Below, in pieces: positions 41,625 to 50,812 of a stretch of DNA of 64,000 nucleotides. A program made the translations under genes and the position numbers. The notes beneath the pieces were generated by a model. The model made no database searches. It saw only the letters and a list, made by a program, of their open reading frames with translations, and was not told where the DNA came from. Source of the DNA: an uncultured Candidatus Binatia bacterium (GTDB lineage Bacteria > Desulfobacterota > Binatia > Bin18); the NCBI GenBank assembly GCA_965200965.1, contig OZ241744.1:1792001-1856000 (forward strand), given 5' to 3'. The first letter of the stretch is position 1, and each line of letters starts with the position of its first letter.

Positions 41625-42809
41625 CTAGCAACGCAAACGCCGCGGCGACAGGCCAGCGACGGAAACGCCGAGCCGCGCCAGCGCTTGGGGGAGCGGCTGG
41701 CCGAGCAGGATGGCGCTGCACGCCTGACCCATTGCCGCCGCGGTCTGGATGCCGTAGCCGCCCTGGCCGGCCAGCCAGAAGAAGCCCGGGGCAGCAGGAT
41801 CAAAACCGCCAACCAGCTCGCCGTCGGCCACAAACGAGCGCAGGCCGGCCCAGGTCCGGGCCGGGCGACGGATGCTCAAACTGCTCACCGCCTCAATCCG
41901 GGCGATGCCGGTCGCAATGTCCAACTCTTCGGGCCGCACATCGTGGGGAACGGGAGCTCAGAAACCGCATCGGGCTCGGTGAGGACCTTCGGGCCGCACA
42001 TCGTGGGGAACGGTCGGGTCAGCATTGGCCGGCGAGCCGAGCAACAGGCCGGCCTCGGTCTTGAAGTAGAACGACTCGTCGGCCCCGACAACCGCCGGCC
42101 AAGCGTGGATATCCACCTGTTCGGGCGGGGCAAAGGTAAAGGCGCTGCGCCGTTTGGGGACCAGACCGAGCGGCCTGACCCCGGCCAGCCCGGCAATCAC
42201 GTCGCACCACGCCCCCGCGGCGTTGACCACACTCTCGGCCACAAAATCACCGGCCGGGGTCTCGACCCGCCAGCCGCCGGCCCGACGGCTCAGGCCGGTC
42301 ACTTCGGCCGAGGTAAGCACCTGGCCGCGGTTGCGACGAATGCCGCGCAAAAACCCCTGGTGCAAGCCATGCACATCAATATCGCTGGGGTCGGCCTCGT
42401 AGATGGCCCCGGCCAGAGCGTCGGCCCGCAGCACCGGCACCCGATCACGCGCCTCAGCCGGTGACAGCCGCACCGCCTCAGAGCCGACCTCACGCGCAAT
42501 GGCATACGCTCCGTCCAGCAGGAGGCGCTGGGCCTCGGCCCCGACCAGCAGCAGGCCGCGTGGGCTCAGGATAGGGGTAGCGGCAAAGCCGGGCGGCGGG
42601 TCTTCGTAGAACGGCCGGCTGCCGACCGTCAGCGCCCTGACCAGGGGCGGCCCGTAGGTTTCAATGAACATGGCCGCCGAGCGGCCGGTGGTGTGATGGC
42701 CCGGCTGTTCCTCACGTTCGAGGACCACCACCGAGGCGTGCTGCGAGAGCCAGTAGCCGACCGACGTACCGGCAATCCCGGCCCCAATAATGACAAAACG
42801 GCTGTCCAT
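41625..42809 (-). pseudogene. FAD-dependent oxidoreductase (DAO/glycine oxidase family) interrupted by a 60-bp insertion carrying TGA
   Basis: [40 protein letters not shown]; a single frame throughout, with a stop at 41958-41960 inside the insert. Confidence 0.88.
41927..42013 (-). repeat. 27-bp perfect direct repeat flanking a 33-bp unique insert (CRISPR-like repeat-spacer-repeat)
   Basis: Copies at 41927-41953 and 41987-42013 (minus strand CCGTTCCCCACGATGTGCGGCCCGAAG); insert at 41954-41986. Confidence 0.95.
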
Positions 42810-42871
42810 CAGCACCCTTCCTCTTTTCCTCACTGGCCCGCGGTCAGCCCCAGCTCTCCACCCTGCTCTGC

Positions 42872-49446: not shown

Positions 49447-49573
49447 AGCGGTTGAGGGAACAGGAGCGTTGGGCCACCGGTAGATGTAGCAAATGCCGTT
49501 CTGGCTTCGCAAGGGTCACGATCCATTTGCGTCGGTTCCGGCTTTGTGTCATTTTCTGGCTGGGAACGGAGAA

Positions 49574-50812
49574 TTGGACAAGAACGCGGGACAAGATTTT
49601 GGCGTGAGTCGGCTCAGCCCCCAGTTGGCCCAGTGGCGCGAATGGCTGGCTCTGCGTTCGGTGCGCGGGGTAGGCAATGTCAGCTTCCGCATGCTGCTTG
49701 AGCGCTTTGATTCGCCTCAGGCCGTCTTTGCCGCGTCTGTGGCACGGCTGACCGATGCCGGATTTCAGCCCGCGGTCGCCCGGGCTATTGTGAGCTTTGA
49801 CCAATGGGGAGCGGTTGACGCCGAGTTGGAGCAGATCGTTCGGGCTGGGGTGCGCCTGGTGACCCAGGCTGATTCGGAATATCCGAAAAATCTCACCCAC
49901 ATTCATGACCCCCCGCCCTTTGTGTATATCCGTGGCAGCTTGGAGCCGCAGGACCAGGTCGCCGTCGCGATTGTAGGCGCACGGTCTGCCAGCCCCTACG
50001 GTCGAGATGTGACCAGACAGCTGGCGCGTGATTTAGCCCACAGACGAGTGACCGTGGTGAGCGGGTTGGCCCGGGGTATTGATGCCGAGGCGCACCGTGC
50101 GGCGCTGGAGGCCGGGGGACGGACGATTGGCGTGCTTGGGTCGGGGCTGGATGTGCTCTACCCGTCCGAGCATAGGCGACTGGCCCAGGACATGACCCAG
50201 CACGGCGCAGTGATTTCGGAATTCGCTCTGGGCAGCCAACCCGAAGCCGGCAATTTTCCCTACCGCAACCGGGTTATCAGCGGCCTGAGCCTGGGGACGA
50301 GCCCAAGGGGCACGGTCCGTAGCGGCCCCGGGGACCGCAACCGGGTTATCAGCGGCCTGAGCCTGGGGACGGTGGTCATTGAGGCAGCCGAAAAGAGCGG
50401 CTCTTTGATAACCGCCCGCTGCGCCCTGGAGCAAAATAGAGAGGTGTTTGCCGTTCCGGGCCATATCACCGCCAGCCGGAGCCGGGGGCCGCACGATTTG
50501 ATCAAACAGGGGGCAAAGCTAGTTGAGAGCGTTGAGGATATTCTGGTTGAAATTGCGCCGACGGTTCCAGTCCGGGCTGAGGCTCAAGACGGCACCGGGG
50601 CGGTGTCTGGCCAGCCTGGGCTATCCGCTATCGCGGCCCTTGAGCCCGACGAAGAGCTGCTGGTCAAGCTGTTTGACGGGGAGCCCTTGCATGTCAATGT
50701 CTTGATTGCCAGAAGTGGACTTGGGCCGGCCCGCGTGCTTGAGGTATTATTAGGGCTGGAACTCAAAGGGATGGTCAGCCAACTGCCCGGCACCCATTTT
50801 ACCCGGGTCTGA
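49574..50812 (+). CDS. dprA: DNA-processing protein DprA carrying a 24-aa in-frame insertion (start uncertain; alternative GTG at 49604)
   Basis: VAIVGAR, VVSGLARGID..AH, RNRVISGLS (present twice), VIEA..KSGSLITA, REVFAVPG; upstream of topA. Confidence 0.93.
   Translation: MDKNAGQDFGVSRLSPQLAQWREWLALRSVRGVGNVSFRMLLERFDSPQAVFAASVARLTDAGFQPAVARAIVSFDQWGAVDAELEQIVRAGVRLVTQADSEYPKNLTHIHDPPPFVYIRGSLEPQDQVAVAIVGARSASPYGRDVTRQLARDLAHRRVTVVSGLARGIDAEAHRAALEAGGRTIGVLGSGLDVLYPSEHRRLAQDMTQHGAVISEFALGSQPEAGNFPYRNRVISGLSLGTSPRGTVRSGPGDRNRVISGLSLGTVVIEAAEKSGSLITARCALEQNREVFAVPGHITASRSRGPHDLIKQGAKLVESVEDILVEIAPTVPVRAEAQDGTGAVSGQPGLSAIAALEPDEELLVKLFDGEPLHVNVLIARSGLGPARVLEVLLGLELKGMVSQLPGTHFTRV
50262..50371 (+). 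repeat. 38-bp perfect direct repeat flanking a 34-bp unique insert (repeat-spacer-repeat)
   Basis: ACCGCAACCGGGTTATCAGCGGCCTGAGCCTGGGGACG at 50262-50299 and 50334-50371; insert at 50300-50333. Confidence 0.95.

Follow-up and report, generated by a model that had tools for sequence, protein, structure and literature searches.

Short inserts between CRISPR-repeat-sized duplications in the chromosome of an uncultured Binatia bacterium: very probable off-target spacer integrations

What kind of process leaves a short insert between two perfect copies of a long target, and how could it have marked two unrelated genes of one chromosome? The question is raised by a 64,000-nucleotide (nt) stretch, hereafter the window, of an uncultured Candidatus Binatia bacterium (GenBank assembly GCA_965200965.1, contig OZ241744.1), in which a gene for an oxidoreductase dependent on flavin adenine dinucleotide (FAD) and dprA each carry such a scar. 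The genome that holds it, G000, is a single 3.62-Mb contig (C1), and the window is C1:1792001-1856000. The original prediction had attributed both scars in the first place to a Cas1-type integrase, possibly in two subtypes, at work chromosome-wide, and this attribution is supported here by 18 loci, by lengths that match resident CRISPR arrays, and by targets and protospacer-adjacent motifs (PAMs). Reading enzyme action from sequence, we consider it very probable that the scars are off-target spacer integrations by the cell's own Cas1-Cas2.

Two scars and their empty alleles

The repeat-insert-repeat scars that had been described (27/33 and 38/34 nt, totals 60 and 72) were found as exact copies, as follows.

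41927..41953, minus strand: scar 1, target duplication copy, 27 nt, exact repeat
41954..41986, minus strand: scar 1, 33-nt insert, identical to C1:1665370-1665402
41987..42013, minus strand: scar 1, other 27-nt duplication copy, exact repeat
41625..42809, minus strand: DAO-family FAD-dependent oxidoreductase gene, interrupted; in-frame TGA at 41958-41960, within the insert
50262..50298, plus strand: scar 2, first duplication copy, 37 nt in the type I-C register, ending in AC; the exact match runs to 50299
50299..50333, plus strand: scar 2, insert, 35 nt in the type I-C register, exact copy of C1:1312089-1312123, with TTC before the donor
50334..50370, plus strand: scar 2, second duplication copy; the exact match extends to 50371
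49493..50812, plus strand: open reading frame (ORF) of dprA with a 24-residue in-frame insertion from the 72-nt scar

Scar 1 has the form 27-33-27, with duplication plus insert amounting to 60 nt, and its in-frame TGA cuts the oxidoreductase product to about 283 of 374 residues. In type I-E systems the PAM is AAG, and its last base is retained as the first of the 33 nt of the spacer. The target of scar 1 is identical to the resident I-E repeat at 13/28 positions (p=0.097 taken alone), and this likeness set the orientation in which the scar was read; on the minus strand the insert begins with G and AA precedes its donor, which lies inside a TonB-dependent receptor ORF, giving AAG. Scar 1 was thus most likely made by a type I-E enzyme.

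For scar 2, the maximal exact match gives 38-nt copies (50262-50299 and 50334-50371) around a 34-nt insert (38+34=72), while the full donor match spans C1:1312088-1312123 and suggests a true geometry of 37+35 (or 36+36) rather than 38+34. TTC is the usual type I-C PAM, and the scar probably stems from a type I-C integrase, an assignment that is likely, not certain.

Both scars are derived alleles. The insert of scar 1 is absent from all five same-genus genomes that gave a match (two of seven gave none), and scar 2 is absent from six of seven, the seventh being uninformative. Public runs containing window DNA include sponge metagenomes, and read support, which the original prediction had made a condition, was judged on short-read contigs from four of them: X1, which may be the sample the genome came from; X2, which belongs to a different study and shows 15 single-nucleotide polymorphisms in an 8-kb contig; X3; and X11. 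Scar 1 is held by X1, at full depth, and by X2, and contigs of X3 and X11 skip exactly 60 nt, the empty allele. Scar 2 is at full depth in X1, and X2, X3 and X11 skip exactly 72 nt, the empty dprA allele. The predicted outcomes, broken genes and added peptide loops, are both present here, as the stop in the oxidoreductase and the 24 residues added to DprA.

The closeness of the two scars was also considered as special and rejected, two of 18 random loci falling within 8.4 kb in 51% of simulations. A gene between them carries a 37+35 scar of its own in G007 (L054:6821, the counterpart of about 46762-46862 here), a sister species about 92% identical to G000, and is empty in G000.

Scar size classes and the resident Cas1 set

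An exact-repeat scan of G000 gave 20 clean isolated pairs of at least 18 nt, 13 of them with a repeat of 27-40 nt and a gap of 28-41 nt; among pairs of at least 25 nt within 400 nt across the 3.62 Mb, these made up 13 of the 15 clean isolated ones, and their periods cluster strongly when compared to a uniform distribution (p about 3e-14). A mismatch-tolerant scan with inspection added four loci, of which C1:2360022 and 2416367 are scars with diverged copies and C1:622683 and 2879580 carry a repeat-spacer unit that was later doubled into tandem units sharing one spacer, recombination being the probable cause. Together with one multi-spacer site described below, G000 holds 18 scar loci (13 exact, four added, one multi-spacer). 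Many events per genome had been foreseen, and were found; their density, about 5 per Mb, is well below the two in 64 kb from which the forecast was drawn. Coding tandem repeats and degenerate duplications, such as C1:114968, 241288, 1788538, 3449078 and 3494549, were left uncounted. Insertions of a palindromic hairpin of about 50-51 nt form a separate, REP- or MITE-like family (repetitive extragenic palindrome; miniature inverted-repeat transposable element) distinct from the scar class, at many intergenic sites (e.g. C1:1767505, 1908144 and 2376085) and polymorphic between G000 and G007 (37 alignment events at 51 nt).

G000 carries six cas1 loci, each adjoining one of six arrays: I-C, I-B (of the Myxan type, with a Cas4-Cas1 fusion), II-C, I-E, III-B and V-C. 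Integrase gene content was judged here on cas1. The arrays have periods of 60-62 (I-E), 67-68 (II-C), 70-74 (I-B), 71-75 (I-C), 73-83 (III-B) and 43-44 nt (V-C). The periods of the 18 scar loci, 60-61, 68 or 72-78 nt, all fall within those of the resident arrays. Isolated scars of V-C size (25+18) were absent from the scans of G000, where cas1 and cas12c of the V-C system are split. The V-C locus itself (C1:678575-683974, L032) has 25-nt repeats and 12 spacers of 18 nt, among which five, grouped at one end of the array, match the organism's own DNA exactly.

A natural control is provided by G007, of which 2.0 of 3.6 Mb was scanned. It holds 23 scar candidates at sites other than those of G000, and 16 are confirmed, G000 having the empty allele or the insert having a donor in the chromosome; two doubtful cases (L116:8659 and L131:908) were kept among the 23, and L050, L051, L105:6678, L109, L112 and L132:18098 and 18641 were dropped on the same grounds as in G000. 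G007 has no I-E Cas1, and none of its 23 candidates has a period of 60-61, compared to 5 of 18 loci in G000 (p=0.011, a cross-genome Fisher test that is post hoc because the candidate lists were curated by eye). It has an extra Cas9 locus with a II-C array of period 66, and scars of that period, two confirmed and three unconfirmed or doubtful, occur in G007 and not in G000. The scar size classes thus follow the Cas1 content of each species. As a separate observation, the second cas9 of G007 starts with an exact 49-nt tandem duplication (L177:3348-3445).

When 16 of the G000 loci were compared with relatives, nine were empty there, seven were uninformative and none was filled in common: the filled alleles are derived from empty sites, and those of the two window scars are polymorphic among conspecific samples. 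Judged by ORF length, both frameshifts and in-frame loops occur. With the I-E and period-66 classes set aside, 27 scars of G000 and G007 together, those of G007 limited to cases that an empty allele or a donor had confirmed, include 18 multiples of three (p=4e-4), an excess which suggests that frameshifting scars are purged. Three individual cases may be mentioned. A III-B-sized scar at the end of cmr5 (C1:3359968) lies inside the III-B operon, causes a frameshift and has an insert 94% like C1:876366; an in-frame scar (C1:2540592; L028:458-1954) affects an ORF whose PT-TG and ART-HYD1 domains predict a polymorphic toxin of the bacterial kind; and an I-E-sized scar just upstream of the part encoding a RecX domain (C1:2790044; L029:708-1082) appears to truncate the reading frame.

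Donors, targets and a multi-spacer site

Exact chromosomal donors were found for 6 of 20 G000 inserts. In the five intact arrays, 7 of 478 spacers match the chromosome (p=3e-6 for the difference), a count that omits four spacers matching other arrays and the broken V-C array. These four, in the arrays at C1:1689412, 2215437, 2819954 and 3365835, match other CRISPR arrays of the same genome, so that the resident systems capture each other's array DNA. The five I-E-sized spacers with donors read AA|G, AA|G, AA|T, GA|G and AAC|T; AA stands in exact register in three of five (p=8e-4) and AA or GA in four, the fifth being slipped by one base. A match of the inserts to mobile elements with a common PAM had been proposed as a test: the PAM part held (AAG and TTC), while the traced donors are the cell's own chromosome. 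For three of the 13 untraced inserts, a search of viral_contigs with exact 22-nt cores gave no match.

The true I-E array has four self spacers, all without AA, as expected if interference, whose genes are intact ORFs in the I-E system, is active and purges the rest. We infer that ectopic spacers are not processed into working CRISPR RNA (crRNA); at the multi-spacer site described below, the tolerance of self spacers argues indirectly against function.

Repeat-like targets, another feature proposed for testing, were found. Between each of the four single I-E-sized targets and the I-E repeat, 13-15 of 28 positions agree, in the same orientation (p=0.027, 0.035, 0.097 and 0.053; combined 0.002). 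In 16 duplications of exactly 36-37 nt, found automatically in G000 and G007, 11 of 32 strand ends start with GT (p=3e-7), and the resident repeats begin with GT on at least one strand. In vitro, off-target sites of Pyrococcus furiosus Cas1-Cas2 are described, in the accessible part of that work, as having a matching G1/T2 bias and only 43% repeat likeness (PMC6698737).

A 28-nt site in an intergenic unit repeated between adhesin-like paralogs (L160) carries several different spacers:

C1:1500948: single copy of the site, empty, no spacers
C1:1495967-1496113: three repeats, two spacers
C1:1498083-1498289: four repeats, three spacers

The periods are 61, 60 and 61 nt and the spacers are 33 nt long. 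The repeat is identical to the resident I-E repeat at 13/28 positions. Two of the three G000 spacers have chromosomal donors, with AA|G and AA|T, the latter differing at the first base. Beside the same repeat, other samples hold three further spacers, one in X2 and X7, one in X2 and one in X11, whose order is beyond what short-read contigs can fix; two are exact chromosome matches, flanked by GA|G and AAC|T, and that of X11 has no G000 match at up to 2 mismatches. Self DNA thus accounts for four of the six spacers, three of them with an AA or GA PAM in register. The copies at C1:1495967 and 1498083 have what defines a canonical array, namely at least three repeats and unique, variable spacers of constant length. 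A cognate repeat and a leader with a site for the integration host factor (IHF) were not found, the IHF-like matches having at least 2 mismatches (a weak test, as the true I-E leader gave hits with 2 mismatches only); no cas gene lies within 6.8 kb around the site, and its repeat has no match in metagenome_contigs, from which records near G000 may be excluded. Seven paralogs in G007 are without the 28-nt site, and its origin in ordinary DNA is therefore likely, not proven.

From these features, the site is likely a growing neo-array. It is doubtful, on our estimate, that it descends instead from a true I-E array, as what is left after decay or as a part carried over by transfer. Such a history would agree with the folding of the repeat into a hairpin (-12.2 kcal/mol, versus -15.4 for the I-E repeat), and the homologous G007 unit, being without the site, leaves the ancestral state untraceable there. 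A likeness of 13/28 to the I-E repeat is only the level of single scars inside genes, however, and the surroundings offer neither cas genes nor a good upstream IHF site; the site also belongs to a repeated intergenic unit of which one paralog has a single unexpanded copy, and its self-derived spacers with PAMs in register speak against a remnant as well.

A lead to a possibly low fidelity is found in IHF-alpha (C1:2470884-2471168, minus strand; L179:185-469), in which a two-residue insertion and substitutions lie beside the conserved proline of the DNA-bending arm. It scores 86.5 bits, compared to 106-111 in all seven genus relatives, and the altered arm is common to all three cluster members, one of them present on 16 contigs. 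DNABII proteins are reported, in the text available to us, to determine how faithfully I-E and III-A systems integrate (PMC13769266), and the altered arm may loosen I-E targeting; against this lead, G007 carries many scars with a normal arm. Taken together, we think it somewhat more probable than its opposite that a new array is arising in wild populations out of ordinary intergenic DNA, the I-E integrase having captured a 28-nt site that took at least six different spacers across strains, that four or five of the resident integrases work as a mutagen from within, breaking genes or adding loops of 20-26 residues, and that a species-wide change of the IHF-alpha arm may loosen I-E targeting.

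Alternatives, precedents and meaning

The scars could arise as follows. A PAM-flanked fragment, often of the cell's own DNA, would be captured and trimmed to spacer length; Cas1-Cas2 would then perform two staggered transesterifications, one repeat length apart, at a loosely repeat-like chromosomal site, and gap filling by the host would duplicate the target. Most scars would remain single, and one intergenic I-E-like site would have taken several spacers, like a newborn array. Self spacers would persist at ectopic sites, the likely reason being that no working crRNA is produced from them.

Several observations weigh against off-target integration by the resident enzymes. Three of the four single I-E scars measure 27+33=60, one base short of the period of 61 that prevails in the array (220 of 223 cases); frame selection was considered as the cause of the 27-nt duplications, and is ruled out because scar 1 has an in-frame stop. 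No donor was found for 13 of 20 inserts, and one has a 94% match only; two of the five I-E PAMs require a mismatch or a one-base slip, and the donor of the scar at 589271 is without a clean PAM. Scar 2 also fits 36+36 with TTT, as in type I-B. Over the whole repeat, targets of 36-38 nt are not significantly alike to it (the lowest p, for dprA, is 0.059), so that subtype is not assignable for most of them. The test of period-66 scars between G007 and G000 is not significant (p=0.06-0.12), two G007 scars with periods of 63 and 69 fit no array seen there, and in 0.4 Mb of G006, which has I-E only, scars of all sizes are absent, a comparison of low power. The curation of candidates by eye adds to these points.

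Sizes that depart from those of the arrays, as in the 27-nt duplications and the G007 periods of 63 and 69, are what might be expected of a separate short-DNA integrase, or of a casposon or an element of the insertion sequence (IS) type. We regard such an agent as very unlikely. The inserts, of 28-41 nt, are mutually unrelated and consist of ordinary chromosomal sequence; judged by eye at their ends, they reveal no shared element with terminal inverted repeats, and no transposase goes with them. All six Cas1 matches adjoin arrays, and the several size classes would call for several enzymes mimicking the resident Cas1 set. What the scars share with IS elements, MITEs and casposons is insertion with target-site duplication; unlike these, they neither share an inserted element nor encode a transposase, and their duplications, of 27-37 nt, are CRISPR-repeat-sized.

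Templated filler is a recognised outcome of double-strand-break repair, and end joining or template switching could combine a duplication with filler from elsewhere in the chromosome; the traceable inserts are indeed chromosomal. This alternative is slightly less probable still, and is largely refuted. The inspection of cas1 and Ku that had been proposed found the six cas1 loci beside arrays and no Ku in any of eight genomes (LigD was outside the search). Ku-dependent filler should be broad in length, whereas the lengths here are narrow and equal array periods, and repair offers no reason for PAMs, repeat-like targets or the tracking of subtypes. An assembly artefact, conceivable for a metagenome-derived assembly with 5.7% estimated contamination, can be set aside given the PAM-flanked donors, the old scars with diverged copies and the short-read contigs carrying both scars in X1 and scar 1 in the independent X2, which refute it for scar 1, scar 2 being held by X1 only.

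Off-target integration by Cas1-Cas2 very probably accounts for the scars, as a natural variant of a known process and not as a new machine. What had been proposed as an undescribed system is already in the literature, from in vitro work and from E. coli. There, Nivala, Shipman and Church (2018) reportedly observed non-canonical spacer integration giving neo-CRISPR arrays with the type I-E system of E. coli and overproduced Cas1-Cas2. In the portions of text at hand, this work is relayed by 10.1101/148544, PMC7054753, PMC11788318 and PMC6698737, and one paper citing it describes the natural evidence as circumstantial, from two species and of unclear frequency. As far as those portions go, the E. 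coli events resemble ours in the spacer-sized insert, the repeat-sized duplication of a non-CRISPR site and the proposed role as array seed; unlike events under overproduction, those of G000 are fixed or polymorphic in the wild, at about 5 per Mb and from several subtypes, and they go beyond them in their traced donors and in a site with several different spacers. For Pyrococcus furiosus (PMC6698737) and for Thermotoga profunda III-A without HU (PMC13769266), off-target integration by Cas1-Cas2 in vitro is described in the accessible parts of both papers. The likeness there lies in full-site integration at repeat spacing, weakly repeat-like sites, the G1/T2 preference and DNABII-dependent fidelity; those products are test-tube plasmids, whereas ours are heritable chromosomal alleles (PMC6698737, PMC13769266). 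The multi-spacer site, for its part, is like a canonical I-E array in its period of 61/60, its 33-nt PAM-derived spacers and its strain-specific content, and unlike one in its 13/28 repeat, the lack of cas genes and of a recognisable leader, and its tolerance of exact self spacers with an AAG PAM.

We found no genome-wide survey of natural off-target scars in the literature searched, outside of which most subscription papers fell, and the natural examples of Nivala 2018 may overlap with ours. New here are the donors, the PAMs, the tracking of subtypes and the multi-spacer array.

The origin of repeats and arrays and the cost of spacer acquisition to the host are open questions, addressed mostly by overexpression studies, and the scars are a natural record of both. 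Since they escape autoimmune purging, they provide an estimate of the raw share of self DNA in capture, at least 6/20 compared to 7/478 in arrays, and for uncultured organisms they supply PAMs and show which targets integrases prefer. They also constitute a class of mutation that pseudogenises genes or inserts peptide loops. The empty, two-spacer and three-spacer paralogs are a directly testable substrate for array birth and, if the scars are indeed stray integrations, a site with several spacers across wild strains would show how CRISPR arrays are born.

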